Shown here: in pieces, positions 7,498-57,161 of the stretch
How positions within the stretch are numbered: position 1 is the stretch's first letter
Layout: the number at the start of each line of letters is the position of its first letter
Assembly: GCA_965279195.1 (NCBI GenBank)
Contig: CBDIHP010000042.1
Coordinates: 172,317 to 236,316 of the forward strand
From: Isosphaeraceae bacterium
GTDB taxonomy: Bacteria; Planctomycetota; Planctomycetia; Isosphaerales; Isosphaeraceae
DNA: 64,000 nucleotides
Reading direction: 5' to 3'
Notes under the pieces: model-generated
The model's database searches: none
Told to the model about the DNA's origin: nothing
Seen by the model: the letters and a program-made list of their open reading frames with translations, nothing else
Translations under genes and position numbers: made by a program

Positions 7498-7529
7498 CCC
7501 GTCCGAGCTTCCTCGAACCTGGAAATCGC

Positions 7530-13977: not shown

Positions 13978-14100
13978 CCGCCGTCGCGGCGGGATTCCGG
14001 ATCCTCCGGGGGACACGGCTGTCCCCCGGGACGCCCTCCTCGTGTAGAATGGATGCGTCCTTGCATGCGTCCGATCCGCGACGGGGGAGCCGAACCGCCC

Positions 14101-15720: not shown

Positions 15721-16694
15721 CGGTCGCCCGCCGAGCCCAGGAACCCAGCCCGCCCCAGCCGGCGAGCCAGCCCGAGCCGCCGCCCCCCGCCCCGCGCGTC
15801 CGAGGCGAGTCGCGTCACGACCGCGTCACGTCCATGCTCATGTCCGTGATCGTGGGCGCGATGATCGTCTTCGGCTGGCTGACCATCATCGCCGCGACGA
15901 CCTCGGCCTACGCCAAGAAGGTCACCGCGCCCATCGAGGTGATCGAGGTCGAAGGGGGCGGCGGCGGCAGCCCCGACGGCACCGTCGGCGGGATCGAGAC
16001 GGTCGACGTCGCCGGCGCGGCGGCCACCGACCAGAACCGGGCCTCGAACAACACCGAGGAGGCCGGCGACTTCGAGGAGCCCTCCGTGGAGGCCTCGCCC
16101 GCCGCCATGCTCGACAGCGTGGCCGAGGCCGGCCAGGGGCTCGCGGAGGTCGACATCGGCTCGGTCATGCCCACCGGCGGGAAGATCGCCACCGGACGCC
16201 GACAGTCGAAGATCGGCAACGGCCAGGCCGGGTTCGGCTACGGGCCCGGCGACGGCGGCGTCCGGCGGGAAGACCGCTGGAGCATCGTCTACAAGGAAGG
16301 CCAGACCGCCGACGAGTACGCCCGGCAGCTGGACGCCCTCGGCGTGGAACTCGCCATCGTCTCCGGCAACCAGCTCATCTACCTCTCGAACTTCTCCAAC
16401 AGCACCCCGACCCGACGCGTCGGCACGGGCGCCGAGGACAAGCGGCTCTACTTCGTCTGGCGCGGCCAGGGCCGCAAGGCGTCCGACATCACCCTGATCC
16501 AGAAGGCCGGCCTGGAGGTCGGCGAGGGGGTGATCTTCCAGTTCTATCCCCCCGCCGTGGAGCAGGTGCTCTCGCAGCTCGAAGTCCGCTACAAGGGCCG
16601 CCAGCCGGGCGAGATCCGCAACACCCGGTTCAGCGTCGTCCCGACCGGAAACGGCTACGGCTTCGAGGTCCTCTCGCAAGAGCCGCTCCGCTAG
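15717..16694 (+). CDS. Hypothetical membrane-anchored protein, translationally coupled to the upstream gene.
   Basis: A GGAGG RBS lies 6 nt upstream. There is a Pro-rich N-terminus, then one TM helix (MLMSVIVGAMIVFGWLTIIAATTSAYA), a Gly-rich linker and a conserved-looking C-terminal domain (WSIVYKEGQTADEYARQLDALGVELAIVSGNQLIYLSN...). Confidence 0.6.
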   Translation: MTVARRAQEPSPPQPASQPEPPPPAPRVRGESRHDRVTSMLMSVIVGAMIVFGWLTIIAATTSAYAKKVTAPIEVIEVEGGGGGSPDGTVGGIETVDVAGAAATDQNRASNNTEEAGDFEEPSVEASPAAMLDSVAEAGQGLAEVDIGSVMPTGGKIATGRRQSKIGNGQAGFGYGPGDGGVRREDRWSIVYKEGQTADEYARQLDALGVELAIVSGNQLIYLSNFSNSTPTRRVGTGAEDKRLYFVWRGQGRKASDITLIQKAGLEVGEGVIFQFYPPAVEQVLSQLEVRYKGRQPGEIRNTRFSVVPTGNGYGFEVLSQEPLR

Positions 16695-16738
16695 AAGGCA
16701 TCCGGTCCCACTCATCCCAGGCGAGGCACGTTGCCCTC

Positions 16739-37128: not shown

Positions 37129-37728
37129 ATGACAGAGGCCGGCACCGGGTCGAGTTCCGGCATCGACTTCGACCGCCACGCCGATCGGCTGAGGCGGACG
37201 ATCCGCCTGCGCCTCGACCGGCGTCTCGTCGGGGTGATCGATTCGGCGTACGTGCTCGATCGCGTCCGCGCGGAGGCGACGCGGCGGGAACCCGAGCGGG
37301 CGGGATCCGACCAGAACGGCCCGTTCCTCTGGCTCCGGCGGCTCACGGGGGAGGTGCTCCGCGAGATCCACCTGGAGGAGCTGGGCGAGGTCGGCCGGGG
37401 GGACGTCACCCTCCTGCGCGGGGCCTTGCCCGAGGCGAGTTCGGCCTCGCTGGCGACCCAGTTGCTCGGCAAGGGGGCCGGCGCCGCCGGGGACCACGAG
37501 GCGGCCCGGGCGAACCTCAAGTTGCAGCTCCAGGAGCTGCTCAATGCCATGGACCCGATGGACCGCGAGGCCCTGACCCTGAGGCACTGCGAGCAGCTCT
37601 CCAGCGACGAGGCGGCGGCCGTCCTGGGGATCTCCATCCCCCAGGCGAGCGAGGCCTACATCCGCGCTTTGAGGCGGATCGGCGCGATCCTGACCCCACA
37701 ATCGATCAAGCGGGGCGGTCGCCCCTGA
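37129..37728 (+). CDS. ECF-type RNA polymerase sigma factor (sigma-70 region 2/4).
   Basis: Region-4 HTH: DREALTLRHCEQLSSDEAAAVLGISIPQASEAYIRALRRI. A GGAGG RBS is present. It lies immediately upstream of a Ser/Thr kinase, a pairing common in Planctomycetota. Confidence 0.7.
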   Translation: MTEAGTGSSSGIDFDRHADRLRRTIRLRLDRRLVGVIDSAYVLDRVRAEATRREPERAGSDQNGPFLWLRRLTGEVLREIHLEELGEVGRGDVTLLRGALPEASSASLATQLLGKGAGAAGDHEAARANLKLQLQELLNAMDPMDREALTLRHCEQLSSDEAAAVLGISIPQASEAYIRALRRIGAILTPQSIKRGGRP

Positions 37729-37749
37729 CCCGCCCCGACGAGGCCCCCC

Positions 37750-40700
37750 ATGTCCACCTCCCCCAGCGACCGGATCCCCATCGACGACCTCGCCGAGGCC
37801 TTCCTCGCCAGGCGACGCGCGGGCGAGCCGGTCACGCCCGAGGAGTTCGCCGCCTCGAACCCCGACCTCGCCGAGGAGATCCTCGCCCTCTTCCCCGCGC
37901 TCGTGATGATGGAGGAACTCGGCAACGACTCGGGCGACCGCACGGCGACGGTCGCGGGGTCGTCGGGGAGCCTGCCGGCGGGCTTGCCGGTTCAGCGGCT
38001 GGGGGAATACCGCCTGCTGCGCGAGGTCGGACGCGGCGGGATGGGGATCGTCTACGAGGCCGAGCAGGAGAGCCTCGGGCGGCGCGTGGCGCTCAAGGTC
38101 TTGCCCGCCGGCGCCCTGGCCGACCCCAAGCAGGTCCGGCGGTTCACCCGCGAGGCGCGATCCGCCGCCAAGCTGCACCACACCAACATTGTCCCCGTGT
38201 TCGGCGTCGGCGAGTGCGACGGCACCCATTTTTATGTGATGCAATTCATCCAGGGCCAGGGGCTCGATTCGGTCCTCGACGAGCTGAAGCGGCTCCGCGG
38301 CCTGCGGGGCAACGGCGCCCGGACCCAGACCCGGCGCGAGGCCGGCGAGATCGCGCTCTCGCTCGCGTCCGGGCGGTTCGTCGATGCCGAGGCCCCCACC
38401 GTCCCCTCGGGCGGGCTCTCGGCGATCCGGTCGGGCAACATGTCGGGCTCGGCCACGGACGTCTCGACGCTCACCGAGACCGACCGCCGTTTCGCCCAGG
38501 GGGTCGCGAAGCTCGGCGTCCAGGTGGCCGACGCCCTGGCCCACGCCCACGGGCAGGGGATCCTGCACCGCGATATCAAGCCCTCGAACCTCCTGCTCGA
38601 TCGCGAGGGGAACGTCTGGGTCGCCGACTTCGGCCTGGCGAAGGCCGTCGGGGCGGACGACCTGACGCACACCGGCGACATCATCGGCACCGTCCGCTAC
38701 ATGGCCCCCGAGCGGTTCCGGGGCGAGGCCGATGCCCGTTCGGATGTCTATGCCCTCGGGCTCACTCTCTATGAGCTCCTGGCCCTCCGCCCGGCGTTCG
38801 ACGAGGGCGACCGCGCCAGCCTGATCCGTCAGGTCACCCAGGAGACGCCGCCGAGGCTCCGACGCATCAATCGCGCGGTGCCGCTCGACCTCGAGACCAT
38901 CATCCACAAGGCGATGGCCCGCGAGCCCGAGGGGCGTTACCGCTCGTCGCAGGACCTCGCCGAGGACCTCAAGCGGTTCCTCGACGGGCGGCCGATTCTT
39001 GCGCGCCGGGTGTCGACCGGGGAGCGGCTCTACCGCTGGAGTCGTCGCAACCCCGCGTTGGCCGCCGCGATGGGGGCGGTCGCCCTGCTCCTGGTCGCCA
39101 CGACCATCGCCGCCGTGATCGGCATGGGATTTTACCGGCACCAGGCCGAGATGGCGGACCTGGCCCGCCGCGAGTCGGACCTGCTGCGCGGCGAGGCCGA
39201 GCGTTCCCGCCGCGAGGCCGATACCCGCCGCGTCGAAGCCGAGGCCGAGCGGCAGCGGGCCGAGTCGAACCTGGCGGAGTCTCGCGAGAACCTCGCCCTG
39301 GCCCGCAAGGCGGTGGACGACTCGTTCACGAAGATCAGCGAGAGCAGCCTGCTCAACGTCCCTGGCCTGCGGCCGCTCCGGAAGGAACTCCTCGAATCGT
39401 CGCTGGGGTTCTATGAAGAGTTCTCCAAGCGTGCTCGGGGGACCGACCCGACCGTCGTCGCCGACCTCGCCGGCGCGCGGTACCGCGTCGGACGAATCCA
39501 GTCGGAGTTGGGGGTCCTGATCGAAGCCAGGGCCAATTATCAGGAATCTCTGGCCCTTTTCGAGCGGGCCCTCGGGGCGAAGGCCGCCGCGCCGTCAGCT
39601 CTCCGCGAACTCGGCGAGGTCTGGCACCGGCTCGGGGACCTGGACGCGTTGAATGGCCGCACCGGCCCGGCCCTCCCGGCGTACCTTCACGCCGTCTCGA
39701 TCCGCGAACGCCTGGCCCGGTCCGGCCCCCGATCGTCGCGGGATCGCCTCGACCTGTCCAGGTCGCTCAACGGGGTCGCGATCTCGACGGCCGACCGCGA
39801 ACAGCAACGCGATGCCTATCGGAGGTCTCTCGCTCTCCGCCTGGAGACGGCGAAAGATCTCACCGACGACCCCGATCTGCTCCACGGCCTGAGCGAGTCG
39901 TTCCTCAATTGCAGTGTGATCATCCGGGACGCAGGCTATGGCGAGGAGGCGCTGGAACTCGCCAGGCGGGGTCTGGACTACGGCCACGCCGGCCTCGCCC
40001 GACGGCCGCACGACATCGAATTCACGATGGACCTCGGGGGGCTCTACGGCCAGATCGCCGGCTACTGCTGGAACCTCGGGCGGGAGCGCGAGGCGCTCGA
40101 GCTCTCGGCGGAAGGGATCGGATTCGAGGTCGACGCGGTGGCGAAGAATCCGGAAGTCCCCGGATTCCGGTCGTACCTGGCGGATGTCCTGATCAAACGC
40201 CTGAATTTCCTCCGACCCCGGAGGCAGGCGGCGCCCGAGGCGGATCCGACCCGCCGGGCGGATCTCCTCGCGATCTTCGAGACGATCGTCTGGCTCCATG
40301 AGTCCGCGCCCCAGCCCACGAAGGACGGCCTGGCGCTGGCGGCGGCGGCGCACCTCCACCGGGCGGTCCTGCTCGCCGGAGTCGGGGCGCCTGCCTCGCC
40401 CGATGCCTGGTCGACGGAAGCGAAGGAGGAGAGGGTTCTCGGCTTCGTGGACCTGGATCGGGCCAAATCCAGGGGCATGTCGGAGGCCGAATTCGCCAGG
40501 GCGTATCCCGAACTCCGGGACCTCCTGGAGGGCACCCGACCCGAGAAAAAACGGTCGGGCGGTCGCGTGCCCGGGCCACCCACGTCGTGGCCGGTGCCCA
40601 GGAAAAGCGGCACCTCGCCCCTGGCGATTCCCGGCCGATTCGAGGAGGACCGCTCCTGCGCCGAACTCGTGATCGCGATCCTGCACCGCCTCGGCCGGGA

Positions 40701-43700
40701 CGGGGAGGAGGCCGATCGACGGATCCAGGCGCTCCTGGACGTGTGCGACGGGGCCGCGACTCAGCCACGATCGTCCTTCACGGAATGGCTCGCAATCCGC
40801 TGCCGGCTCCGGCTGGGCGGCCTGGCCTTCGAGCGCGGCGATCTCGCGACGGCGGCTGGGCACTGGGAGGCCATCCGGGCCACCTTCGACCGTTCGGATC
40901 GATACCGTCCCCAGCCGGCGGCATTGCGATGGAACCTCGGCACGGCCGCCGTCGTGGTCCGGAATGCGTACCTCTCGGTCGGCCTCTGGGAGGATGCCGC
41001 CGAATTCGACCGCATCGCCCTGGTGACCGGCGCGGCCGCATCGGGGTGGAACCTCCGCGAGTCCCCCGTGGTCGAGGCCCTTTGCGGAAACCTCGACGCG
41101 TCCCGCGATGCGATCTTCAAGGCGCTCCACGGTCTGGACGAGGATCACCCCAACGTGATCGACCTGCTCCGGGCAGGATCCATGCTGCATGAGACCTCGG
41201 ACCTGAAACGTCTCCTGGGCCTCGCGGGCCGGGTCCGATCCGCGAAGCCGTCCGACTGGAACGCCCGGATGGCCCTGGCCGAGTTGAGGCTCGCCGCGGG
41301 GAAGTACGACGACCTCCGGAGCATCCTGGGCGAGCAGACTCGCTACGAGAACGGTGCCGCCATCATGGCCCTCGCCGCCGCGCGACAAGGGCTCCGAGCC
41401 GAGGCGTTCCGCCGGCTCCGCCAGCTCGATGACGAGATGGCGACCGTCGCCCGGCAAAGCGTGCAGGCCCTGGGCGCGATCCGGCTGCCGCGTTCGACCA
41501 CCTCCGACCATTTCCTGGCCGAATGGCAGCGTCGGGAGGCCTACCGGCTCCTCGGCGAGAGACCGCCCGTGATTCGCCCCCTCGCGCTGTTGCGGGCGTC
41601 GTCGTTCTGGCGGCTCGGGCGTCGGGACGAGGCCGAGAAGGAATTCGAGAGATCGCTCCTCGACGCGGACGATCGCATCGCCGCCCTGACGGAACGGGCG
41701 AGGACATTCGCCTCGATCGGCCGGATGGACCGCGCGGTCGCCGACCTCGACGCCGCGAGGAGCCTCGACTCCAACGACGCCCGGCCCTGGATCCAGGAGG
41801 GGCGGCTCGCCTTCGAACGGGGAGACGTTCGGGCCGGCGAGCGGGCCTACGCCCGCGCCGGCGGGCTGCTCAAGGGCCGGATCGACCCGTTCTTCGACGC
41901 CGGCTGGTGGGCCGTCGGGCCGTTCCCGACGACGATGGACCTGCCCGAGGAGCCCGACCGATCCGCCGACCCCTCGCGGCCGGTCCGCTCCGGCAACCTG
42001 CGGCTGAACTGGAACGCCTTGCCGGTCCAACCGGACCACTTCGTGAACCTCCGGGCGATGCTGGTCCGGGACGGTTCGGCCTACCTGCTGACCCACGTCT
42101 ATTCCGAGGTCGAGCGAGCCGAGATGCTCGCCTTCGACGGCGGCGAGAACTTCCAGCTCTCGGTGAACGGCCTGCGGATCCTATCCGAGAACGAATCCGC
42201 ACCGCCGCTGGCGAACTTTCGGCATGTTTTCCACATCAGGCTTGTCCCGGGCCTGAACACGATCCTCGTGCGCGTCTCCCACAAGGCCGATGTCCCCTGG
42301 TTCCGCATGACGGCCGTCGACTCGCCCGCGGTCGTGGGGATGCTCCAGGCCGAGTTTGCCCGCTTCCCCGAGGCGGCGAACTCGCTCCTTCGGGCCGAGC
42401 GGGAAGGGCGTCTCCCGGGCGCGTGGTATCGGTTGTTCGTCTGCGACCTGCTCGAGTTCGCCGGCCGTCGGGACGAGCGCGAGAGGATCCTGGCCCGGCT
42501 CGTCGATCCGGACAGTCAAGCGGGGGCCGATCCCAGAGACCTTTCGCTCTCGCTCGCCTACCAGCCCCAGAACGTCGTCCCGCCGGACAGGGTGCTCGCG
42601 CTTGCGGAGAAGGTGGTCGCCTCGGAGCCCGACAACTTCTGGCTCAAGTTCCCCCTCGGTTATGCGTTGTATCGCGCCGGTCGCTATGACGACGCCATTC
42701 GGCATTTCCGGGCGAACTGGCCCCAGGGGGATGCCTACGAGAGGCCCGTCCGAGCGATGGCGCTGGCGAAGCTCGGCCGCAAGGATGAGGCAAAGGCGCT
42801 GCTCCGTGAGGTCGACGCCGACTTCGATGCCTGGTGCCGCGAGCGGGCCGGCGGCAAGGGGACGGCCTGGACCAACTGGTGGTTCGACGGCATCCGCCGG
42901 CTCAACCTCCGCCGCGAGGCGCACCGGGAGATCCTCGGCCGCCCGCCCGACGACTCCCCGGCACTCGATCGCATCCGGACTCAGATGGGCACGCTCCTCG
43001 ATCGGACCGACTCCCCGACCTGGAGCCTGGATGTGGCCCGGACGATCGACCCCAGGTCCCGCGCCGCAATGTTCGGCCTGGCCCAGCGGTTGATGAGACT
43101 CGGGCGCTACGACGAGGTCGCCCCTTTGATCGAGGAGGCCGTCGCTCGTGTGGGCCTGAGCCCGTCCGACTGGTCGCAAGGGAGTCTGCTGTACTCCTAT
43201 GCCGGACAGTTCGACCGCGCGGCCGATCTCTTCCTCAAGGCGTACGACCTCTACCCGACGGACAGCAGCTATTTCTCGGATCGAGGGTTCCTGATCTCCC
43301 AGTTCTTCTCCGAGTCCGAGGTCATGGAGCGCGTCCTGCTCCGACGGCCCGACGACCCATTCCTCCATTTCGTCCGGGGGATGGAGCGGTTGATTCGCCG
43401 CGACCTCGCCGGGGCGATCGCCGACTTCGAGCGAGGCGGCCCGAAGCCGCCCTCCGAACTGGCCTACATCCACGCCGCCGCCCTGCTACTGGCCGGTGAC
43501 GAGCCGGGGTATCGCCGGCTCGTGCAGAATCACGCGGCGCAGTTCGGCGACTCGAAGGATCGGGAGACATGCTACGTCCTGGCGAGGATGGCCGTTCTGG
43601 GGCGGACGCCCCCGGTCCCGGTCGGGCGGATCATCGGGTGGGCGAGGCTTGCGACCGAGGAGGGGAAGAATGGCTGGTCGGCCCACGTCTGGGCCCTTGC

Positions 43701-44010
43701 CTGCCTGAGGGCCGGTGACCTGTACGGTGCCCGCAAGGCCCTCTTCGACAGCCAGGCCTATGGCTGGGGCACCGGGATCGGCCTCAACCTGGTCGCCGAG
43801 GCGATGATCCTCCACGCACAGGGCCAGCCGGCCGACGCCCTCCGGGTGCTGGACGCGATCCCCGACCTCTACAGGAGTCCCCCTGCGACGCTCCGCTCCA
43901 CCCCCAATTCGCTCCATGCGGAGGACTGGATGGAATACGAGGTCCTCACGAAGCAGCTCCGCCCGGGCCTCTACGACGCGGTCTTCCCCGCCGATCCGTT
44001 CTCCCCCTGA
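37750..44010 (+). CDS. Serine/threonine protein kinase, 2086 aa, with a TM segment and a very long C-terminal TPR/helical-repeat region.
   Basis: Kinase subdomains: GRGGMGIVYEA, VALKVL, HRDIKPSNLLLD, DFGLAK, YMAPERFRGE. TM segment: ALAAAMGAVALLLVATTIAAVIGMGFY. More than 1500 aa of helical repeats follow. Confidence 0.85.
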   Translation: MSTSPSDRIPIDDLAEAFLARRRAGEPVTPEEFAASNPDLAEEILALFPALVMMEELGNDSGDRTATVAGSSGSLPAGLPVQRLGEYRLLREVGRGGMGIVYEAEQESLGRRVALKVLPAGALADPKQVRRFTREARSAAKLHHTNIVPVFGVGECDGTHFYVMQFIQGQGLDSVLDELKRLRGLRGNGARTQTRREAGEIALSLASGRFVDAEAPTVPSGGLSAIRSGNMSGSATDVSTLTETDRRFAQGVAKLGVQVADALAHAHGQGILHRDIKPSNLLLDREGNVWVADFGLAKAVGADDLTHTGDIIGTVRYMAPERFRGEADARSDVYALGLTLYELLALRPAFDEGDRASLIRQVTQETPPRLRRINRAVPLDLETIIHKAMAREPEGRYRSSQDLAEDLKRFLDGRPILARRVSTGERLYRWSRRNPALAAAMGAVALLLVATTIAAVIGMGFYRHQAEMADLARRESDLLRGEAERSRREADTRRVEAEAERQRAESNLAESRENLALARKAVDDSFTKISESSLLNVPGLRPLRKELLESSLGFYEEFSKRARGTDPTVVADLAGARYRVGRIQSELGVLIEARANYQESLALFERALGAKAAAPSALRELGEVWHRLGDLDALNGRTGPALPAYLHAVSIRERLARSGPRSSRDRLDLSRSLNGVAISTADREQQRDAYRRSLALRLETAKDLTDDPDLLHGLSESFLNCSVIIRDAGYGEEALELARRGLDYGHAGLARRPHDIEFTMDLGGLYGQIAGYCWNLGREREALELSAEGIGFEVDAVAKNPEVPGFRSYLADVLIKRLNFLRPRRQAAPEADPTRRADLLAIFETIVWLHESAPQPTKDGLALAAAAHLHRAVLLAGVGAPASPDAWSTEAKEERVLGFVDLDRAKSRGMSEAEFARAYPELRDLLEGTRPEKKRSGGRVPGPPTSWPVPRKSGTSPLAIPGRFEEDRSCAELVIAILHRLGRDGEEADRRIQALLDVCDGAATQPRSSFTEWLAIRCRLRLGGLAFERGDLATAAGHWEAIRATFDRSDRYRPQPAALRWNLGTAAVVVRNAYLSVGLWEDAAEFDRIALVTGAAASGWNLRESPVVEALCGNLDASRDAIFKALHGLDEDHPNVIDLLRAGSMLHETSDLKRLLGLAGRVRSAKPSDWNARMALAELRLAAGKYDDLRSILGEQTRYENGAAIMALAAARQGLRAEAFRRLRQLDDEMATVARQSVQALGAIRLPRSTTSDHFLAEWQRREAYRLLGERPPVIRPLALLRASSFWRLGRRDEAEKEFERSLLDADDRIAALTERARTFASIGRMDRAVADLDAARSLDSNDARPWIQEGRLAFERGDVRAGERAYARAGGLLKGRIDPFFDAGWWAVGPFPTTMDLPEEPDRSADPSRPVRSGNLRLNWNALPVQPDHFVNLRAMLVRDGSAYLLTHVYSEVERAEMLAFDGGENFQLSVNGLRILSENESAPPLANFRHVFHIRLVPGLNTILVRVSHKADVPWFRMTAVDSPAVVGMLQAEFARFPEAANSLLRAEREGRLPGAWYRLFVCDLLEFAGRRDERERILARLVDPDSQAGADPRDLSLSLAYQPQNVVPPDRVLALAEKVVASEPDNFWLKFPLGYALYRAGRYDDAIRHFRANWPQGDAYERPVRAMALAKLGRKDEAKALLREVDADFDAWCRERAGGKGTAWTNWWFDGIRRLNLRREAHREILGRPPDDSPALDRIRTQMGTLLDRTDSPTWSLDVARTIDPRSRAAMFGLAQRLMRLGRYDEVAPLIEEAVARVGLSPSDWSQGSLLYSYAGQFDRAADLFLKAYDLYPTDSSYFSDRGFLISQFFSESEVMERVLLRRPDDPFLHFVRGMERLIRRDLAGAIADFERGGPKPPSELAYIHAAALLLAGDEPGYRRLVQNHAAQFGDSKDRETCYVLARMAVLGRTPPVPVGRIIGWARLATEEGKNGWSAHVWALACLRAGDLYGARKALFDSQAYGWGTGIGLNLVAEAMILHAQGQPADALRVLDAIPDLYRSPPATLRSTPNSLHAEDWMEYEVLTKQLRPGLYDAVFPADPFSP

Positions 44011-47644: not shown

Positions 47645-47716
<72 letters not shown>

Positions 47717-47753
47717 CTCGACAACTCCTGATTTCCCCAGTAGATACGAAAAG

Positions 47754-47788
47754 AGCCGCCGGGTCGCACCGGCGGCTTTCTTCATTTT
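47754..47788. terminator. Rho-independent terminator hairpin between the tRNA-Gly and integrase 3' ends.
   Basis: GCCGCCGGGTCGCACCGGCGGC followed by TTTCTTCATTTT. Confidence 0.6.
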
Positions 47789-47809
47789 GTCCGCATTTTT
47801 GTCCGCCGT

Positions 47810-49003
47810 TTACGAGAGGGGCCTCTCGCCCGAGGGCGGGTCGGGGGGCAGGGAGAGGGCGGGGATGTCAGGCTTCGTACCTGCGTCGGCCCTGGGCCGC
47901 GAGTCCAGCCCCGTGATACGGTCGAACTCGGTACCGACGACCTTGACGTAGTATGTCATCGTCGTCTTGATGTCCGAGTGGCCGGCCCACTGCTGCAGGA
48001 CCGCGGGCATGACAACCGTCGCCCAGTCGGTGAGGCAGGACTTCCGGAGGGTATGCACCGGCTTCTCGTAAGGGGCCACGCCCGCCCTCTTGCAGAGGGT
48101 CTTGAAGTCTCGGCCGAGGTTGGTGACGCAGACCTCGCCCGGCGGGATCACCATCTCCGCATGGAGAGAACGGTAGGCCGCCAGAAGGGCATGCAGTCTC
48201 TTGCTCATCGGGACCATCCTGAGAGCCTTGTCCTTCGGCTGCCACTCCCCGTGCACGTCTGAGTGGGCGACGATGCAGATCGTCTGGTTTTCCATGTCGA
48301 CCTGCTTCCAGGTCAACCGGATCGTCTCTTCGCGACGCAGCCCCGCCCACCTGGCGAGCCCGAACATCAGCTTCCAGCCGGGTTTCGCCACCTCGATCAG
48401 CTTCTGAATCTTCGAGTCGTCCACGTAATTCCAATCACGCTGGTCCGACGTCTGGGACTTGATCTTCTCGAATGGATTGACGTCGAGTAGCCCGTCGTCG
48501 ATCGCCCGATTGAAAATCGTCTTGGCCTCGCGGATGTGCCGATCCACGGTCTTGAGGGAAGGGGCCGATTTCGTCGCCCGTTTGTTGTGCTTGGCCATTC
48601 CACCGGCTGCGAGGGTCGTCCTGAAGTCCCTCGCATCCGCCGGAGTGATGGCGTCGAGCCGGCGGCCCTCCCCGAAACGGCCGATGAGGTACCTGCATGT
48701 GTGCTGATGGAGTTCGAGAGTCCCCGAGACGACTTCGGTCTCCCGAGACTCAAGGTAACGCTTGAGGTACTCGCCGAGCTTGGGGGGCTCGGTGCGATTC
48801 GGGCCGAACGGGTCGTCGTTCAGCTTCATCTCCTTCTGGAAGCGGAGTTCTTCCGCCTTGTTCCTCTTCATGCGGCTCGCGAGGCCGAGGTTCTCCGTGA
48901 CCTCCTTGCCCGAGACCGGATCCCGCCAGTGGAGGCGAAAGTAGTCGTACTTGGCCCCGTTCGACGTGGTCGTCTTCACTCGCAGCGACACCTTAACGTG
49001 CAC
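47810..49003 (-). CDS. int: Site-specific tyrosine recombinase (phage integrase family).
   Basis: C-terminal catalytic region: HTLRKSCLTDWATVVMPAVLQQWAGHSDIKTTMTYY (R..H-x-x-R...Y). GTG start. Adjacent to a tRNA gene. Confidence 0.85.
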   Translation of the reverse strand: MHVKVSLRVKTTTSNGAKYDYFRLHWRDPVSGKEVTENLGLASRMKRNKAEELRFQKEMKLNDDPFGPNRTEPPKLGEYLKRYLESRETEVVSGTLELHQHTCRYLIGRFGEGRRLDAITPADARDFRTTLAAGGMAKHNKRATKSAPSLKTVDRHIREAKTIFNRAIDDGLLDVNPFEKIKSQTSDQRDWNYVDDSKIQKLIEVAKPGWKLMFGLARWAGLRREETIRLTWKQVDMENQTICIVAHSDVHGEWQPKDKALRMVPMSKRLHALLAAYRSLHAEMVIPPGEVCVTNLGRDFKTLCKRAGVAPYEKPVHTLRKSCLTDWATVVMPAVLQQWAGHSDIKTTMTYYVKVVGTEFDRITGLDSRPRADAGTKPDIPALSLPPDPPSGERPLS

Positions 49004-49358
49004 GACGGCGTCCTCCCTTGCTGTTTCGACGCGATGGCGGCTTCTGTCGACCGTTCCGGCTGAGGTCGAGGAGCAGTGCGTCCAGGTCCGGCTTGAGGTA
49101 GTAGATCTCGCGGCTCACCGCCACGGATCTCAGCTGGCCGTTCTTCCGGTAGCCGTCCAGGACGGCCTTGGGGTTGGCGATCTTCTGCTCGTCGAGCCGG
49201 AGGTAGCGGGCGGCGTCCGCCGGGTTGAGCAAATCGCGGCACGGCTCCCCCGGCCGGAACGATCCCTCATTGGCCGGGAGGGTTTCGACCGTCTGGGCGA
49301 ACGCCCCACCCATGAACGCGGCGTAGTTCTCGATCCGTGAACTGATGCAGGCAGTCAT
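48993..49358 (-). CDS. Excisionase-family helix-turn-helix DNA-binding protein (putative Xis/regulator).
   Basis: LLNPADAARYLRLDEQKIANPKAVLDGYRKNGQLRSVAVSREIYYLKPDLDALL is HTH_17/excisionase-like. It overlaps the integrase start by 11 nt. Confidence 0.55.
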   Translation of the reverse strand: MTACISSRIENYAAFMGGAFAQTVETLPANEGSFRPGEPCRDLLNPADAARYLRLDEQKIANPKAVLDGYRKNGQLRSVAVSREIYYLKPDLDALLLDLSRNGRQKPPSRRNSKGGRRRAR

Positions 49359-49797
49359 CTTCTAGCAACCATTGATCTCAGGCATCGCGTCGGAATCAAG
49401 CCCAGGACGCGGCCAGGCGGCGACCATCCTCCGGTCGCCGGACACTACATAGGTTCCGCTTTTCGGCGGATTGGCCGATTCTGGGCCTTTTTCCGTGAAG
49501 ATCCCATGAAGATTCTCAGGCTTGAGTCTTCGCTGATTTGTGTAGCTCTCGCAGATCCTCCAATGTCGCAAACCCGGGCTGGACAAGAGGCTCCGCCGCA
49601 ACGGCCCGCGGCCCGCCCCTCATGGACAATACGCGGGCCTCAGGCCCCCGATCCGGGCCGGATCCGATGGGGGCAGGGGGAATCGCAGGGGGTCCGCGAC
49701 ACGCCGACGCCGCACCCGCCCCATAACGACCCGCCGTGACGGGGTATTAACGAGGTACATCCCCCGCACCCTCTTCAAGCCCCGGAGCACTGCCCCT

Positions 49798-50001
49798 ATG
49801 CCACGACTCAAGACCGACGACGCCCCCCTGGGCACCACCCGGGCCGCCGCCTACCTCGGCGTCCACCGGTCCACCCTGAAGGCCTGGAGGGTCCGCGGCG
49901 TCGTCCCGGCCTCGGCCGCCGACACGCCACGCGGCGTCGTCTACCTCTTCGAGACGGACGACCTCGACCGCCTCCGGGCGAGAATCGACTACGGCCGCTG
50001 A
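49798..50001 (+). CDS. AlpA/MerR-like phage transcriptional regulator (HTH).
   Basis: MPRLKTDDAPLGTTRAAAYLGVHRSTLKAWRVRGVVPASAADTPRGVVYLFETDDLDRLRARIDYGR; 67 aa, AlpA-type HTH. Confidence 0.6.
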   Translation: MPRLKTDDAPLGTTRAAAYLGVHRSTLKAWRVRGVVPASAADTPRGVVYLFETDDLDRLRARIDYGR

Positions 50002-50058
50002 TCGCGGAACCTATGAGGAGGGGGTGCACTCTCGCAACTCCTTCAGGACACCCCGCCG

Positions 50059-51396
50059 ATGCCCAGCGACCTCCGCCCCTACGACCCCGGATCCACCGTT
50101 CTCCACGACGCCCTCGGCCTCGCCGGCCAGGGATTCCGCGTCGTGCCCCTGAAGCCGGGCGAGAAGACGCCCCTGATCAGGCAATGGCAAGACAGGGCCA
50201 CGACCGACCCGGCGGAGATCCGAAAGTGGTTCGGCCGGAGGTCCCACGCCAACCTGGCCATCCTCACAGGGGGAGGCGTCGTGGCCCTCGACATCGACCC
50301 CCGCAACGGGGGCAACGGGTCCCTCAGGCGGCTCCTCGGGAGACGCCACCTCCCCGAGACCGCGTTCGCGAAGACGGGCAACGAGGGCCTCCACTACCTG
50401 TTCCGGGTGGGGGAGGGCGAGACTCACCGCTGCTCCAACGGCATCCTCCCCGGGATCGACCTGAAGGGCGACGGCGGCTATCTCGTCGTCGAGCCCAGCG
50501 TCCATCCGGAGACGGGGCGGGAGTATCGGTGGGAGCGGACGCCGAGACAGGGCATCGCAGCCATGCCCGACTGGCTCAGGGAGGCCGTGCTTCCGGGCCC
50601 TCGGCCCACCTCCCTGCCCCGATCCAGTGCGGCCCCGACGGGCGACCGCGTGGGGGCGTCCGACGTCCTGCTGGCGGAGTCCATCGCGAGGTTCCCCATC
50701 GCCCGTGTGGGGACACGCCACGGCCAGATGAACCGCCTGATCGGCAGCCTGGTCGGGCGGGGCTACGCCGACGACGTGATCGAGGAGGTGGTGGCCGCCT
50801 GGTGGGCCCACTTCCACCGCATGGGACGGACCAGGACGCCGCTCAGGCAGGCCCCGTCGTCGATCCGGGCCAGCCTCCGCACCACGAGGGCCAACACGGC
50901 GTTCCGCAGGGCTGTGGGAGTCGACCACATCGCGAAGGCCCTCGAACTGCGGTTCGACGCCTGGGGCGTGCTGGGGGACCTGCTGGGACGGCGAGAGGGG
51001 GATCAGGGCCGGGTCAACGTCCCAGACGACACCGGCGACTCCCCAATACTATGTAATAGAGTCACATCAGGACGCTTTGTCGGCCATGCACCGAGGGAGC
51101 GTGCGTTCGTGGACGCCTGGGCCTGTTACTCGGCCTACAAGCTCGGCCTGGGCGAGGCCCCGATGAAGATGACGCGTCAGCAGGTCTCGGCGATCATGTC
51201 GGGGCTGGGCGTCCCAGAGACGCAACCCCAGCAGTACGAGAGGCTGCTGCGGAAGTACGTCACGCGGGCAAAGAAGCCCGCCGAGAGGTTCGAGCTGGCG
51301 ATCCAGACGCGGAAGGGCCGGCAGGGCGTGCCCTCGGAGTTCCAGCCCACCGGGGTCCTCGAACTCTTGTCAGCAGTCGCGGGGCTGGCGGCGTGA
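50059..51396 (+). CDS. Bifunctional DNA primase/polymerase (Prim-Pol N-terminal domain) protein, mobile-element associated.
   Basis: DALGLAGQGFRVVPLKPGEKTPLIRQWQDRATTDPAEIRKWFGRRSHANLAILTGGGVVALDIDPRNGG and LKGDGGYLVVEPSVHPETGREYRW match the PF09250 pattern. Confidence 0.75.
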   Translation: MPSDLRPYDPGSTVLHDALGLAGQGFRVVPLKPGEKTPLIRQWQDRATTDPAEIRKWFGRRSHANLAILTGGGVVALDIDPRNGGNGSLRRLLGRRHLPETAFAKTGNEGLHYLFRVGEGETHRCSNGILPGIDLKGDGGYLVVEPSVHPETGREYRWERTPRQGIAAMPDWLREAVLPGPRPTSLPRSSAAPTGDRVGASDVLLAESIARFPIARVGTRHGQMNRLIGSLVGRGYADDVIEEVVAAWWAHFHRMGRTRTPLRQAPSSIRASLRTTRANTAFRRAVGVDHIAKALELRFDAWGVLGDLLGRREGDQGRVNVPDDTGDSPILCNRVTSGRFVGHAPRERAFVDAWACYSAYKLGLGEAPMKMTRQQVSAIMSGLGVPETQPQQYERLLRKYVTRAKKPAERFELAIQTRKGRQGVPSEFQPTGVLELLSAVAGLAA

Positions 51397-51525
51397 CCAC
51401 TTTGGGCCGACCCGGGGTAGGGAGGGCCCAGCCCACCCCCTGCTCCCCTTCTCGGCAACCAGGCCGTTGGGATTCGCCCCCGAGAAAAGCTGCGGTCGGG
51501 CCCACGCTGAAGACTAGCCCCAGCG

Positions 51526-54500
51526 TCAACGCCCATAAACAGCGTCATTCCGCTCCCGAGTCCTCGCCTCGTCCCGCCGGGCAATCGCGAGGCCTACGCC
51601 GAATCGGCCGATCGACCTGAGGATCAAATCGGGGTCGGAAGCCAGGGCATCGAAGCCACGGACACACTCCGCCCACATTTCCGATTCCTCACCCCACCAG
51701 GACTTGGGGCTGTCCAAGAGGGCTGCGACAACCCGGTCGACCGCATAGCCAGACAGGACCGCTTCCCTCGCCTTACGGATCCACCCAGGCGTGAGCCATG
51801 AACCTTCACCCGTCCGGCCGCCGACCCTGGATCCGCCGAGCGGGACGAGATGCTCCCGAGCCCAGCGTGGGTCCCGGAGAAGTCGGCGAAAGGCCTGCTC
51901 ATCGTCCCCGATCAAGATCGCGATCAGGTCGCTCGACACGGCCTGTCCGGCCAATTGCTCAAGGAGTGCCAGTCGCTCCTCGGTTTCAAGGTGGTTGGCG
52001 GCGAGGGCGATAACGTCACGTGATCTCTTCCACGCTGCCGGATACCGTAGGAGCTGCGACTCCAGCCAGCGGCGGCGAAGCCCCGGGTGGGATGAGAAGG
52101 CGGGACCGATCCAGTACGAGTCCCCCGATCCCGGAGTATCGTCGACAATCGCGAGCCCCCATACCTCAAGTATGGTCACGTCCACGACGCCCTTCGGCTC
52201 CGCGAGCCACATGCCCTTCGCGGCCGCGAAAGCCACCCGGCGATCGGCATGGCCAAGGAGGAGAAGGAGGGTGGGGGGCGGAAGTTGCTTCCGGATGATG
52301 AGCGTAAAGACCAAGGCTGCATTCGACTCATCGAGGCGACCGACAGCCATTTCGAGGACGCGGTGCGGCACAGTCGGTTCAGAGAGGGCAAGCCCGAGGC
52401 ACTCGGCAGCGTACTCCGGATCGCCGAGCAGGGCCTCCACCTCCGCCCACGCCGTGTCGTCCATCCTTACGAGTCGCGATAGGAATGGTCGCAGGTGGAC
52501 GCCGGAGAGCCCGGCGTCGCGGACAGCCCTCACCCAATTCAAGGGGTCGTCGATCAGCTCGGCGATCCTCTCGCACGCCAAGTTGGAGTACCTGGGCCAG
52601 CCCTTCGAAGCCGACTCGGCTTCCCTCAACAGTCTGGCGAGTTTTCGGACGACCTTCTCCGGGGTGTCCGTCGCCCATCGGACGGCAAGCCTCCGAACGT
52701 CTTCGATGCAGGCGGCTTCGCACTCCGACCAGTCGGCCTGCCCATCGGAAGGGGGGAAGAGGGTCTCATATTCGCCATCAATGCATACGATCAGGTCGAG
52801 GCCGATGACCGTCGCGAATTCGAGCAATCGTTGCTGAATGCCGGGTCGATCTGCGAATCGCGGGGCGAGGTCCGCCAGCATCCGCCCCGCGATCCTCCGC
52901 CGAGCCTGAGCGATGTCGGGCGGGACTTGGCCCGCGACTGGACCGTCGTTGACGTAAACCCAGCCGCGAAGCAGTTCCGAGAGCGGATGCCACCGCATCG
53001 CCGAGTCGGGCAAGTTCTCCTCGATCCACCCATCCCAGAGCCGTTCGAGTTGTTCGAGTTCCAGTACGCCGAGGAGGCCCGAGGAGATCGTCACCGTCCG
53101 TCCAATACCGGGGTCGGTTTCGGTCCAGTTCGCCGTGGGGCTGAACGCGAGTGCGGCGGCGAGGTATCCGATCTCGGTCCAGCCCGTCTTCGCCATCCAG
53201 CTCGTCACACCCACCAGGAGTAGGCGGCGACGCTCGATGGCCTCGAAGCTGCCCGGCCGTGCACTCGCGACCCAGTAGCGAAGCCACCGCATCGCCTCTC
53301 CTTCATGCCACTCCGTCCCACGATCGAAAGCCTGCCCGTGATCGAGGAGCCTCTGTATGGCTGCCTCGGGGATCCAATCCAGGGCGGCTTGTGCCAGCTC
53401 CGAGGAAAGACAAGTGGCACGCGAGAGGACCTCGGCCGCTTCCTGGGGCCCCAGCCAGGCGTAACGGGCCCAGAGGAACTCGGAGTCGACCTCGTCGAGC
53501 AGCTTGAGTAGCAATCCCGCGGGTACGTCCCCACCGACCGCCTTCGCCCCGATCAACGTGTCCACGACGTAATCGAGTTTCACGGCGGCGTCGAGGAGGG
53601 GCGTGAAATCCAACTGCCCTGGGCCCGAGAAGAACACGTCTCGGACCAAGGCGTGCCGCAGCCGCTCTGGCCACATAGAGATCGCACCGCCGCCTGCATC
53701 GGAGACGATGCCCGCCAACGCAAGCGATGCGACGATCTGCCGCAGCTCGATGAGAGAGTATGCGTACGCCCTCGCCACCCCGTCCAGCGGCATGCCCGCG
53801 TTCCCGCCGAATGCGAAGGAGGCGAGGATTTCGAGTGGAGCATCATGGTCCAGCTTGCGGAGGAAGACGGCTAGGTCCCGGGTGAGGGCGGTCCCGAGGG
53901 CGACCTCTCCTGCCCCCTGATTGAAGCACAGTTTCGCGAGGGTCACGGCCAGCCCGGGCCGGCCGTGGGCCTGATCCACGATCTCACGGATCAAGCCCGT
54001 CGGGCCGGCGATTCCGGCCGATCGGACTACCTCGGCGATCTGGTCGCGGTCAAGAGGAGCCAGCTCGCGGACGTCGGACGGCCCGAGGCAGAGGCGGGTG
54101 ACCATCTCATCCCGAGCACCGGGCCAGACGCTGGCCACGATGGAGAACCCGGCCGAGATCTCCCGGCGGAGTTGGGCGAGCCGGAGGACGACCTCCGGGG
54201 CCACGTGTGCATCGTCCACCGCGATAAACCGTGGTTTCTTCGCCCGGACCTCCGGTGCGACGCGGGCGATGTCCGCGGTGACGAGGAACAGTCCCCACCC
54301 TTCCAGCACCAGCTTCCGGAGCAGGGAGGTCTTCCCCGAGCCCGGCTCGCCGACGAGTAGACGGTCGCCCGTCGCCGCACTCAGCCAGACCAGGTCATCC
54401 TCACGCCCCGTCAACTCCTGATCCGTCAGGGGACGACTCGTGACCGGCTCGACCGAGAGGGAGGGGGCTTCCCCGTTGAGGTTGAGCAGTTCGAGGCACC

Positions 54501-54948
54501 ACGCGGGATTCTCGTGGAGCCGATTTGCGAAATCGGCCCCATCGTGGATCTGGATCAGCTCGAACCCCTTCTCCTTGGCCCGGCCCAAGAGGTTCTGCCG
54601 CCGTGTAGGCGTGAGGAATTGTGATGTCGCCACCACGACCTTCCTGCGGGAGCCGCCGTGATCCAGATAGGAAGCCAGGCTGCGGGCCAGGTTACCGATC
54701 ACGTTCTTCCCCGTGGTGCACACGAGGGGAAAGGCCGGCCCTTCGCCGTCCGCAATCGCCCCGTCCATCCCCGAGTCGCCGCCGCCCCGGATCGGAACCA
54801 ACGCCGGGTAGTCGGCTCGAAGGAGGGCACTGGCACAGCGTTCGAAGACCTCCGGGTCAAGTTCCCTCCGGAGACCGTCCTCGATCTGCTGGTGGAAGGT
54901 ATTTCGCTTCAAGCGAGAGCCCTCGTGGCATCCGGACCCGAGCATCAT
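51526..54948 (-). CDS. Large P-loop NTPase (1140 aa) with STAND-like architecture: a nuclease-like N-terminal domain (tentatively Mrr/PD-(D/E)xK-like), a central Walker A/B NTPase and a long C-terminal alpha-helical repeat region. Candidate Avs-like antiviral defense protein.
   Basis: Walker A: VGEPGSGKTSLLRKL. Walker B: PRFIAVDDAH. N-terminal 150 aa: GGGDSGMDGAIADGEGPAFPLVCTTGK ... VVVATSQF. C-terminal ~800 aa are Leu/Ala/Arg-rich helical repeats. It is encoded inside the tRNA-Gly-integrated element. Confidence 0.6.
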   Translation of the reverse strand: MMLGSGCHEGSRLKRNTFHQQIEDGLRRELDPEVFERCASALLRADYPALVPIRGGGDSGMDGAIADGEGPAFPLVCTTGKNVIGNLARSLASYLDHGGSRRKVVVATSQFLTPTRRQNLLGRAKEKGFELIQIHDGADFANRLHENPAWCLELLNLNGEAPSLSVEPVTSRPLTDQELTGREDDLVWLSAATGDRLLVGEPGSGKTSLLRKLVLEGWGLFLVTADIARVAPEVRAKKPRFIAVDDAHVAPEVVLRLAQLRREISAGFSIVASVWPGARDEMVTRLCLGPSDVRELAPLDRDQIAEVVRSAGIAGPTGLIREIVDQAHGRPGLAVTLAKLCFNQGAGEVALGTALTRDLAVFLRKLDHDAPLEILASFAFGGNAGMPLDGVARAYAYSLIELRQIVASLALAGIVSDAGGGAISMWPERLRHALVRDVFFSGPGQLDFTPLLDAAVKLDYVVDTLIGAKAVGGDVPAGLLLKLLDEVDSEFLWARYAWLGPQEAAEVLSRATCLSSELAQAALDWIPEAAIQRLLDHGQAFDRGTEWHEGEAMRWLRYWVASARPGSFEAIERRRLLLVGVTSWMAKTGWTEIGYLAAALAFSPTANWTETDPGIGRTVTISSGLLGVLELEQLERLWDGWIEENLPDSAMRWHPLSELLRGWVYVNDGPVAGQVPPDIAQARRRIAGRMLADLAPRFADRPGIQQRLLEFATVIGLDLIVCIDGEYETLFPPSDGQADWSECEAACIEDVRRLAVRWATDTPEKVVRKLARLLREAESASKGWPRYSNLACERIAELIDDPLNWVRAVRDAGLSGVHLRPFLSRLVRMDDTAWAEVEALLGDPEYAAECLGLALSEPTVPHRVLEMAVGRLDESNAALVFTLIIRKQLPPPTLLLLLGHADRRVAFAAAKGMWLAEPKGVVDVTILEVWGLAIVDDTPGSGDSYWIGPAFSSHPGLRRRWLESQLLRYPAAWKRSRDVIALAANHLETEERLALLEQLAGQAVSSDLIAILIGDDEQAFRRLLRDPRWAREHLVPLGGSRVGGRTGEGSWLTPGWIRKAREAVLSGYAVDRVVAALLDSPKSWWGEESEMWAECVRGFDALASDPDLILRSIGRFGVGLAIARRDEARTRERNDAVYGR

Positions 54949-55062
54949 GGCGATTCGTACAGTATAGCATCTGGCCTCAATGTGAGCCCAGATCGCTCGT
55001 GAGGCGTTTCATCGACCGACCATGAGTCGCCAAGTGAAGCCGTCGACCCGCAGACCAACCCA

Positions 55063-55488
55063 TTGTGGAACATCCCCGAGATGGACGACCCCCTCCTCGG
55101 CATCGCCCTCCTGATCATGCTCCCGTTCTTCGGCGTCGCCTCGGCCGTCGCCGCACACGCCCGAGGCCATCACCCCGCATTGGGTTTCCTGTTCGGAATG
55201 TTCCTCGGACCAATCGGATTCCTCGTCGCCATCACGTTGCCCCGCGACATGCCAGCCACGCCTCCCCTGCGGCCCGCAACCGAGGAGGGCCTCGCCAGGG
55301 AACGGGACTTGATCATCCAACGTCGGCGGAAATCCCGGCGGATCCGGCGAGAAGCACTGGAGTCGGAGGCCCACCGCAGGAGGCACGCCATCATCATGTT
55401 CGCGACCGCCCATTGGTGGGTGTGGCAATTGCTGGTCGCCCTAGGGATGATCGTTGCGGCAATCTCCCTGCTCCGGCGAAGCCCCTGA
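55063..55488 (+). CDS. Small hypothetical membrane protein (141 aa).
   Basis: Two TM helices (LLGIALLIMLPFFGVASAVAA; ALGFLFGMFLGPIGFLVAITL), a basic linker, and a C-terminal TM helix. Confidence 0.45.
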   Translation: MWNIPEMDDPLLGIALLIMLPFFGVASAVAAHARGHHPALGFLFGMFLGPIGFLVAITLPRDMPATPPLRPATEEGLARERDLIIQRRRKSRRIRREALESEAHRRRHAIIMFATAHWWVWQLLVALGMIVAAISLLRRSP

Positions 55489-55934
55489 ATTCTGCGGGCC
55501 ATCAACCCCACGTAGCCGTGATCGCTAGGAATGATGCGAGCGACTGCGTCGAGGTCGACGACGAACCGAACCTACGACCTGGAGGAAGACGCCGTGACGC
55601 GAGACCCCGCCCCCAGCCCTGGGGATATCGAGTCGTCCCGATACCTGAGCCGCAAGCCCTGGATGACGCCGCGTCCGCCTGCCGATCTGCGACCCGGAGG
55701 ATTCGGGCCAGGAGGAGACCGCTGCTGGAGGAGACCGGGTACGGCGGACGCACAGCTTCCCGGCGGCCGGCGTGCACCTGGCCTTGCGGAGGGAGTAGGG
55801 TCGGCACTTCGAGATCAGGATGCCCCAGCTCTCCGGGTTGCCGGGATACCGAGCCGAGCTGCACTCCGACGCCAGTTCGTCTCGGCCCAGGGGCACAGCG
55901 GCGAGCATGAGGCGGGAAGGTATCGTCGTCCGCG

Positions 55935-57161
55935 TCATTCGCCGGTGACCAACTCCTCTATCCCCTCCGCTTCGAGCTGACCGGTCGGCGTCGGGGCCGG
56001 CGGGAACAGGATCCTCAGGAGCGGCGGGGCGAGGAAGGTCGTCACCAGGACCATGAGCGTGACGGCACCGAAGAGCTTCGCGTCGAACACGCCGCTCGAC
56101 AGGCCTATCTGGGCGAAGATCAGGCCCACCTCCCCTCGCGGGATCATGCCCACGCCGATGACCCCCTTCCTGCCCCCGAACCAGGGCACCGCGTATCCCG
56201 CCGCGAACTTGCCCGCAACCGCCGCGACGATGAGCAGGCCGCCGACGAGGAGCGTCGTGCGGTTCGCCGGGTCCGCGGGGTTGAAGACGCGGAGGTCGAC
56301 CGCCGCCCCCACGGAAGCGAAGAAGATCGGCACGAAGAGGTTCCCAAGCTCCGTGACCCCGTGCTCGATCTCGCGGGCCCTCGGCGTCTTCGCCAGCAGC
56401 ACCCCCGCGACGAACGCACCGATGATGACCGCCGACCCCGCCCGATCCGCCAGCCAGGCGAGTCCGAGGGCGAGCATCAGGGCCAGGATCGTCGGCGTGG
56501 CCGGCATCTTGACACGTCCCCCGAGCCGCATGAGGTGAGGGAGCAGGAGGCGGCCCAGGAGGAGCGACCCCACCAGGAAGCCGAACGCCGAGCCCGCGAT
56601 CCGGGCGACCCCCCAGGCCGTGACCTGCTCCCCGCGGGCGAGGCCCGAGACCACGGTGAGGATGATCAGGCCGACGATGTCGTCGATGACCGCCGCACCG
56701 AGGATGATCCGGCTCTCGGGCTCGTCCATCCGCCCGAGGTCCGAGAGCACGCGGGCCGTGATGCCGACGCTGGTCGCCGTGAGCGAGGCCCCGACGACGA
56801 CGCCCACCAGGCCGCCGAGGCCGAGGAGGTGGCAGACGCCGTAGCCGAGGGCGAACGGCAACACCACGCCGACCGCCGCCACGGCGGCGGAACTCCCGCC
56901 CACCTGCATCAGCTTCGCGAGGTCGGTCTCCAGGCCGATGGCGAACAGCAGGAGGATCACCCCCAGCTCGGCCAGGAGGTGGATCACCTCGGAATGGGGG
57001 TCGAGGATACCCAGGACCGAGCCGCCGAGGACGACGCCGGCCAGGAGTTCGCCGAGCACCGTCGGCTGGCCGACCGCCCTGGCGATGCCCCCGAGGAGTT
57101 TCGCGACGGCGAGGGTGAGGACGAGGACGCCCAGGAATTGGGGGACGCTCATGTGTTCCAT
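55935..57161 (-). CDS. Cation:proton antiporter (Na+/H+ exchanger family, CPA-type).
   Basis: A polytopic membrane protein of 408 aa. Segments LAELGVILLLFAIGLETDL and VGMIPRGEVGLIFAQIGL are typical of PF00999. Confidence 0.8.
   Translation of the reverse strand: MEHMSVPQFLGVLVLTLAVAKLLGGIARAVGQPTVLGELLAGVVLGGSVLGILDPHSEVIHLLAELGVILLLFAIGLETDLAKLMQVGGSSAAVAAVGVVLPFALGYGVCHLLGLGGLVGVVVGASLTATSVGITARVLSDLGRMDEPESRIILGAAVIDDIVGLIILTVVSGLARGEQVTAWGVARIAGSAFGFLVGSLLLGRLLLPHLMRLGGRVKMPATPTILALMLALGLAWLADRAGSAVIIGAFVAGVLLAKTPRAREIEHGVTELGNLFVPIFFASVGAAVDLRVFNPADPANRTTLLVGGLLIVAAVAGKFAAGYAVPWFGGRKGVIGVGMIPRGEVGLIFAQIGLSSGVFDAKLFGAVTLMVLVTTFLAPPLLRILFPPAPTPTGQLEAEGIEELVTGE

Follow-up and report, generated by a model that had tools for sequence, protein, structure and literature searches.

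What kind of protein is encoded by the large minus-strand gene at positions 51526 to 54948 of a 64,000-nucleotide stretch of DNA from an Isosphaeraceae bacterium (assembly GCA_965279195.1, contig CBDIHP010000042.1, positions 172,317 to 236,316 of the forward strand; the whole stretch is hereafter referred to as the window), and why does this gene lie close to a tRNA gene, an integrase gene and a primase gene? In the original prediction, which was made from the sequence alone, the product was described as an Avs-like STAND nucleoside triphosphatase (NTPase) with a nuclease-like N-terminal domain, carried inside a mobile element. According to the present analysis, the gene is probably both a single-protein antiviral STAND (Avs/NLR-like) immune sensor and the cargo of a small tRNA-Gly-integrated element with an integrase, an excisionase-like helix-turn-helix (HTH) protein and a PrimPol-type primase, this judgment being made on the two parts together. 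The gene was defined as follows.

51526..54948, minus strand: whole open reading frame (ORF) of the Avs-like STAND NTPase, 1140 aa, uninterrupted; 1128 aa with the probable start at TTG 54912

The window protein was searched against 5.8 billion proteins and gave 531 matches (E ≤ 1e-3), most of which were aligned over 99% of the query length with 36-50% identity, and more than 500 homologues were full length. Since hundreds of near-full-length homologues exist, the ORF is a real gene and not a chance reading frame. When 1.84 billion cluster representatives were searched with a profile, 2162 representatives of 50%-identity clusters were recovered, 1290 of them with E ≤ 1e-30. The source name of all homologues was 'hypothetical protein', and no mention of family-member accessions was found in a literature search. 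In the loci of GTDB species, which were all from metagenome-assembled genomes (MAGs), the family was patchily distributed among environmental bacteria of at least nine phyla (Chloroflexota, Planctomycetota, Acidobacteriota, Verrucomicrobiota, Spirochaetia, Proteobacteria, Myxococcota, Bipolaricaulota and Gemmatimonadota (Longimicrobiales)). Translation from the annotated ATG gives 12 additional residues (54912-54948) that are absent from all homologues, and residues 1-15 had a predicted local distance difference test (pLDDT) score below 50 in the structural model. The N-terminus of every homologue reads 'M(K/I)RDPFY', the counterpart of which in the window is 'LKRNTFH' (residues 13-19), and GAGGG is located 7 nt upstream of the TTG at 54912 (residue 13). 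Because of this N-terminal match and the upstream GAGGG, the TTG at 54912 is probably the true start of the gene.

A full-length structural model was generated with AlphaFold2 from a 43-sequence alignment (pLDDT, 85; predicted template modeling score, 0.71), and the domains and NTPase motifs were located as listed below, invariance of K206, D245, D246, G181 and R182 being judged across 43 homologues.

54469..54912, minus strand: N-terminal Mrr-like domain with PD-(D/E)xK fold, residues 13-160, alpha/beta
54049..54426, minus strand: nucleotide-binding domain, residues 175-300, five strands (P-loop strands 196-295 in the model)
54391..54414, minus strand: LTGREDDL, residues 179-186, presumed 'hhGRExE'-type motif upstream of the P-loop; G181, R182 and W188 invariant
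54325..54351, minus strand: Walker A, GEPGSGKTS, residues 200-208; K206 invariant
54205..54228, minus strand: Walker B, FIAVDDAH, residues 241-248; D245 and D246 invariant
53629..54048, minus strand: helical domain (residues 301-366, with GRPGLAVTL at 329-337) and winged-helix domain (residues 367-440) of the model, completing the NOD module
51529..53628, minus strand: C-terminal alpha-solenoid, residues 441-1140, helices in the model, putative sensor of about 700 residues

The protein carries the motifs of the STAND superfamily, namely Walker A, Walker B of the hhhhD(D/E) form and a preceding segment, LTGREDDL, which we take to be the 'hhGRExE'-type motif from what is established for STAND and ORC-type NTPases; its family form, LxGRxxDLxWL, is invariant. 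Both Walker motifs had been foreseen, although at residues around 215-260, and they were found at 200-208 and 241-248. In the model, the nucleotide-binding domain is followed by a helical bundle (residues 301-365) with the invariant GRPGLAVTL and by a winged helix (residues 371-425), the latter region giving weak matches to MarR_2, HTH_IclR and RPA_C in family members, and this complete NOD module (nucleotide-binding, helical and winged-helix domains) precedes a long C-terminal region. The helical nature expected of the C-terminal region was confirmed, but its length is about 700 residues from residue ~441, not about 800, and it is interrupted by one beta-hairpin (residues 605-625).

In Foldseek searches the solenoid was matched to Avs4 and to HEAT/ARM solenoids, and the best PDB match of the full model was Avs4 bound to the phage portal (8dgf_B, E 2.2e-8); Avs proteins were the top matches in both fold searches. 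As in the layout of Avs proteins, a predicted effector, a STAND NTPase and a putative sensor of at least 400 aa are joined in one polypeptide. Mean column identity was highest in the N-terminal domain (0.71-0.78), intermediate in the NTPase (~0.6-0.75) and lowest in the solenoid (0.38-0.63).

The N-terminal head is predicted by the model to adopt the alpha-beta-beta-beta-alpha-beta core fold of restriction endonucleases. Two segments of the head were compared with the active site of Mrr.

54760..54786, minus strand: GGGDSGMDG, residues 55-63, Mrr signature 'GDgGiDG' with catalytic-type D58 and D62
54706..54726, minus strand: LVCTTGK, residues 75-81, strand beta-3 at the position of VQAK in Mrr; the family reads V-x-T-T

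With hhalign, the head was aligned to E. coli Mrr (E 2e-3) and to an alignment of Mrr proteins (E 1.9e-4, 48% probability, 121 columns). GGGDSGMDG was aligned to GTGDGGIDG of E. coli Mrr, E36 (the Glu of the 'FE' helix, alpha-1) to the FE of the same protein, and the head strand 'vvvATSQxLT' to 'VFITTSGFT' of Mrr. The catalytic-type residues E36, D58 and D62 were retained in 181, 188 and 186 of the 188 family members, respectively. A profile search with the head alone recovered only fragments of the same family and no other architecture bearing this head. About 70 extra N-terminal residues precede the Mrr-like head in P0212, P0264 and at least three other members; in the two members scanned (P0212 and P0264) they form an XRE-type HTH, for which autoregulation may be one possibility.

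Relatives carry other heads on the same NTPase and sensor. Among the 150 best profile hits, six aligned with the profile solely from position ~150 onward to its end and had a different N-terminus, which was a CHAT protease (P0227), a TIR/SEFIR domain (P0256), an NNH1 domain (P0268), a helical domain of unassigned type (P0260 and P0265) or a nuclease with the canonical 'GRD...VIQCKR' (D...QxK) motif (P0194). A constant NTPase and sensor combined with interchangeable death or effector domains is a hallmark of Avs and NLR-like proteins (PMC13581612), and the N-terminal effectors of the present family are exchanged in this modular manner. The Avs/antiviral STAND architecture put forward in the original prediction is accordingly borne out by the model, by the Foldseek match to Avs4 and by effector swapping.

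The genomic neighborhoods of the homologues are consistent with the expected role in defense. A type I restriction-modification (R-M) operon (L006) contains one homologue between its hsdS and hsdR genes, and another is located directly after a type I R-M system (L003); others adjoin DUF1156/DUF499, NNH2 and nSTAND1-trypsin genes (L002) or Schlafen-like and DUF4062 genes (L007). Adjacent genes in further loci encode BREX PglX (L027), PglZ (L021), a type IIG/DrmMI methyltransferase (L026) and a DrmD/BrxH-like helicase (L028). Of the 7 contexts retrieved via encoding contigs, 4 contained defense genes, and BREX, type IIG or DISARM-like neighbors were present in at least 4 of the 29 GTDB species-representative loci. 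Four neighbors per locus were scanned and the defense neighbors were counted by hand; from the 29 loci alone, a rough binomial P of ~1e-3 was obtained against a background of 1.5% (PMC13581612). By this hand count, the family is enriched beside known defense systems, as are Avs proteins. The family gene was always solitary, with no conserved partner gene.

The L006 locus (positions 2369-14452 of a Nitrospirota MAG) deserves a separate description. Within its type I R-M operon, hsdR is separated from hsdM/hsdS by an insert with genes for a HigB toxin, an HTH-M78 (ImmA-like) protein, an SNase-like ORF, a second hsdS, a DUF2188 protein and the STAND homologue. Because several inserted genes are held in one R-M operon, the locus is a compact insertion hotspot for defense genes.

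In the window, the STAND gene is accompanied by the following features.

47645..47717, plus strand: tRNA-Gly(CCC), probable integration site of the element
47810..49003, minus strand: tyrosine integrase (Pfam Phage_integrase; phrog_1)
48993..49358, minus strand: 121-aa ORF that overlaps the start of the integrase gene; called excisionase/HTH-like by eye only, no family match
49798..50001, plus strand: 67-aa ORF, weakly excisionase-like HTH (phrog_66, E 1e-3)
50059..51396, plus strand: element-borne PrimPol-type primase, gene convergent with the STAND gene (Pfam Prim-Pol, 6.8e-41; phrog_1156)
55063..55488, plus strand: 141-aa ORF, predicted membrane protein with three hydrophobic segments, between the STAND gene and a Na+/H+ exchanger gene

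The tRNA-Gly(CCC), the tyrosine integrase, PrimPol and the weakly excisionase-like HTH confirm the location in a mobile element that had been proposed. A direct repeat of the tRNA-Gly 3' end (attachment site, att) marking the far end of the element was not found in 47717-55935, and the element may be decayed or the att core may be very short. The sole repeat found, an 11-mer at 47722 and 54412, was rejected as att, as the second copy lies inside the STAND coding sequence and was judged to be due to chance. The 141-aa ORF had no family match and no relative among 44 related loci. G+C content at third codon positions (GC3) was 0.78 in the STAND gene versus 0.86-0.96 in surrounding genes, and 0.86 and 0.89 in the integrase and PrimPol genes of the element itself; this lower GC3 fits horizontal transfer and suggests a more recent or separate acquisition of the STAND gene.

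Besides the window, 1 of the 44 related loci had a PrimPol neighbor. In this locus (L035, positions 9713-18673, Planctomycetaceae MAG), a homologue (9923-13387) directly follows tRNA-Ser(CGA), and two integrase-like ORFs and a 936-aa PrimPol-helicase are encoded downstream of it. In both its cargo and its type of tRNA-integrated integrase-PrimPol element, L035 corresponds to the window. If the immune function is confirmed, these two elements would represent small satellite-like vehicles for defense genes outside the well-studied Proteobacteria.

Among known systems, Avs4 (EcAvs4, PDB 8dgf), in which an Mrr-like nuclease, a STAND NTPase and a TPR-like sensor recognizing the phage portal are combined, shares the tripartite domain order and the single-gene organization of the window protein. 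It differs in that the identity is only ~10-11% and the head in the window lacks (E/Q)xK, and the likeness of the sensors was demonstrated only at the level of a helical solenoid. With Avs5 (AVAST type 5, SIR2-STAND; PDB 9jap and 9nc9) the window protein has in common an NTPase nearest to the nSTAND3 type, which is the NTPase type of Avs5 (bioRxiv 10.1101/2025.07.08.663546), but the effector of Avs5 is SIR2 and not a nuclease fold, its sensor is different, and nSTAND3 scores of the window protein were below threshold. The head resembles E. coli Mrr/Mrr_cat (PF04471) in fold, 'FE' helix, GDxGxDG loop and 'hhhTTSxFT' strand, whereas T78-T79-x stands in place of QxK, a conserved lysine is lacking and the Pfam score is under the cut-off. 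Mrr-like nuclease effectors are also a feature of most Avs2 homologues. NNH1, TIR/SEFIR and CHAT heads, as used by the relatives, are likewise found in bNACHT and other NLR-like defense proteins, although the NTPase of the window protein is not of the NACHT type. By analogy, the best-supported reading is that the window protein would work like Avs4 or an Mrr-bearing Avs2.

A mechanism can be proposed by analogy with Avs3, Avs4 and Avs7, the nuclease-bearing Avs proteins for which activation has been described (PMC13601566, PMC13581612). The resting protein would be autoinhibited, and the ~700-residue solenoid may bind a conserved phage protein, a kind of target suggested by the good conservation of the sensor across phyla. 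Binding would release the NOD module, whose motifs and fold are in place, and ATP binding and oligomerization would follow. Oligomerization would then cluster the Mrr-like heads, and DNA would perhaps be degraded; the fold of the head is seen in the model, and its catalysis is the least secure of these steps, less secure than ligand sensing and oligomerization. Destruction of DNA would abort the infection and so protect the element and its host.

Several results weigh against an Mrr-armed antiviral sensor. Several homologue loci had neutral neighborhoods, and no homologue was found by tblastn against PLSDB plasmids and INPHARED phages or by an IMG/VR scan. No PADLOC, NCBIfam or Pfam model matched the window protein above threshold: PADLOC, including the models for Avs1-5, gave only mad8 (E 4e-3), a match at the level of the P-loop; the NCBIfam antiphage models gave EruA (12 bits versus a cut-off of 1000); nSTAND3 scored 15.1 bits versus a gathering score of 27.2; and Mrr_cat scored 18.0 bits versus a cut-off of 21, in the window protein only (1 of 43 members). 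The NACHT model of Pfam was also below its gathering score (16.1 bits versus 26.7), covered the P-loop only (residues 197-216) and was seen in 3 of 43 members. Weak matches (E ≤ 0.01) to nSTAND3 and nSTAND_NTPase5 were obtained for 18 and 8 of the 43 members, respectively, nSTAND3 being the specific STAND model of Pfam matched by most family members. The active site of the head is a further point of this kind. The complete catalytic set of Glu on alpha-1, Asp on beta-2 and (E/Q)xK on beta-3 was not found, (E/Q)xK being missing throughout the family; T78 is invariant (188/188), T79 occurs in 91% of members, N86, eight residues downstream of T78, is likewise present in 188/188, and the sole candidate lysine, K81, occurs in 67 of 188 members (36%). 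Strand beta-3 contained no conserved Glu/Gln, acidic residue or lysine in the 188 members. The Mrr/PD-(D/E)xK-like N-terminus of the original prediction therefore stands as a nuclease fold with E36, D58 and D62 and as an incomplete canonical catalytic triad, and because (E/Q)xK is missing with no conserved lysine in its place, nuclease activity is uncertain.

These features of beta-3 speak for an alternative in which the protein is a defense STAND sensor but its Mrr-derived head is not a canonical DNase. The site might be rearranged, perhaps with E36, D58, D62, T78 and N86, for a different chemistry or substrate, or the head might be a non-catalytic module for DNA binding, ligand binding or oligomerization, with killing or signaling effected in another way. 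Beyond the replacement of VQAK of Mrr by V-x-T-T, this alternative is favored by the low confidence of hhalign across beta-3, by the profile-versus-sequence alignment, which ends before beta-3, and by the single match to Mrr_cat among 43 members. The head, as the most conserved part of the protein, is moreover under strong constraint, and the sister protein P0194 with its QxK nuclease demonstrates that this family has access to the canonical form. The head retains the Mrr fold as well as E36, the Glu of alpha-1, and the GDxGxD loop, which argues in the opposite direction, and a non-canonical head is considered unlikely.

The frequent embedding of homologues in R-M or BREX loci would also suit an NTP-dependent restriction-type enzyme that senses modified or foreign DNA instead of a protein, with the head as reader and cutter and the NTPase as motor or switch, comparable to type IV, type ISP or McrBC-like enzymes. 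However, instead of a translocase the protein has an NTPase of the NOD type, complete with winged helix and long solenoid, and since the head is exchanged with CHAT, TIR and NNH1 domains, none of which reads DNA, sensing must reside elsewhere in the protein; this explanation is very unlikely. The convergent PrimPol gene next to the STAND gene, the similar pair in L035 and a weak ORC-CDC6-like Pfam match in one member could instead point to an ATPase for replication or maintenance of the element, namely an ORC/Cdc6- or DnaA-like initiator or loader working with PrimPol. PrimPol was a neighbor in only 2 of ~44 loci, the other contexts having no replication genes, and this rarity disfavors a replication module; the 700-residue solenoid, the nuclease-fold head and the TIR- and CHAT-swapped relatives are without parallel among initiators, and Avs proteins headed both fold searches. 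On the evidence of neighborhoods and effector swaps this possibility was rejected as scarcely credible. A missing nuclease fold together with a replication ATPase had been named at the outset as the finding that would speak against the original prediction, and what was found was a nuclease fold and a PrimPol neighbor that is not conserved. A non-immune regulator of signal transduction or transcription (MalT/AfsR-like) has in its favor that STAND NTPases include regulators (PMC13581612), that P0212 and P0264 have their N-terminal XRE-type HTH and that the winged-helix region weakly matches MarR and IclR models. It is nevertheless highly improbable, as the window protein lacks any DNA-binding output domain beyond the NOD winged helix, the HTH variants retain the Mrr-like domain, no conserved neighboring operon is available for regulation, and effector swaps and defense-island contexts favor immunity.

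With the antiviral sensor retained as the preferred explanation, its position among named families can be considered. The window protein is outside every modeled family, that is, Avs1-5 of PADLOC, the NCBIfam antiphage models and the STAND and Mrr_cat models of Pfam. The suggestion that it may be an undescribed Avs type holds for these collections only, the family being judged unnamed against PADLOC 2023, NCBIfam 2026 and Pfam. Because several members are in nr, this family is probably included in the STAND census of Lee et al. 2026 (PMC13581612), which has 589 clades; its defense-associated STAND clades number 198 and its sensor clusters 684. If confirmed, it would be a widespread Avs/NLR-like family missed by PADLOC, NCBIfam and Pfam and abundant in Planctomycetota, Chloroflexota, Acidobacteriota, Verrucomicrobiota and other little-studied phyla, the phage biology of which is almost unexplored.

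A more far-reaching interpretation is that ~2000 clusters (50% identity) from uncultured environmental phyla constitute an unnamed Avs-like family with a solenoid sensor of its own, directed at some phage or mobile-element component, and with an effector in which (E/Q)xK has given way to the invariant T78, the invariant N86 lying eight residues further on; taken as a whole, this is put forward tentatively, as a possibility that is still rather doubtful. Such a head, if true, would represent either a new active-site solution in the PD-(D/E)xK fold or else a killing or signaling activity that is new and not of the nuclease kind, and would make the effector a natural experiment on drift of the Mrr active site under strong selection.

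Elsewhere in the window (37129-44010, plus strand), a gene for an ECF-type sigma factor is directly followed by one for a 2086-aa Ser/Thr protein kinase with long arrays of tetratricopeptide repeats (TPR).

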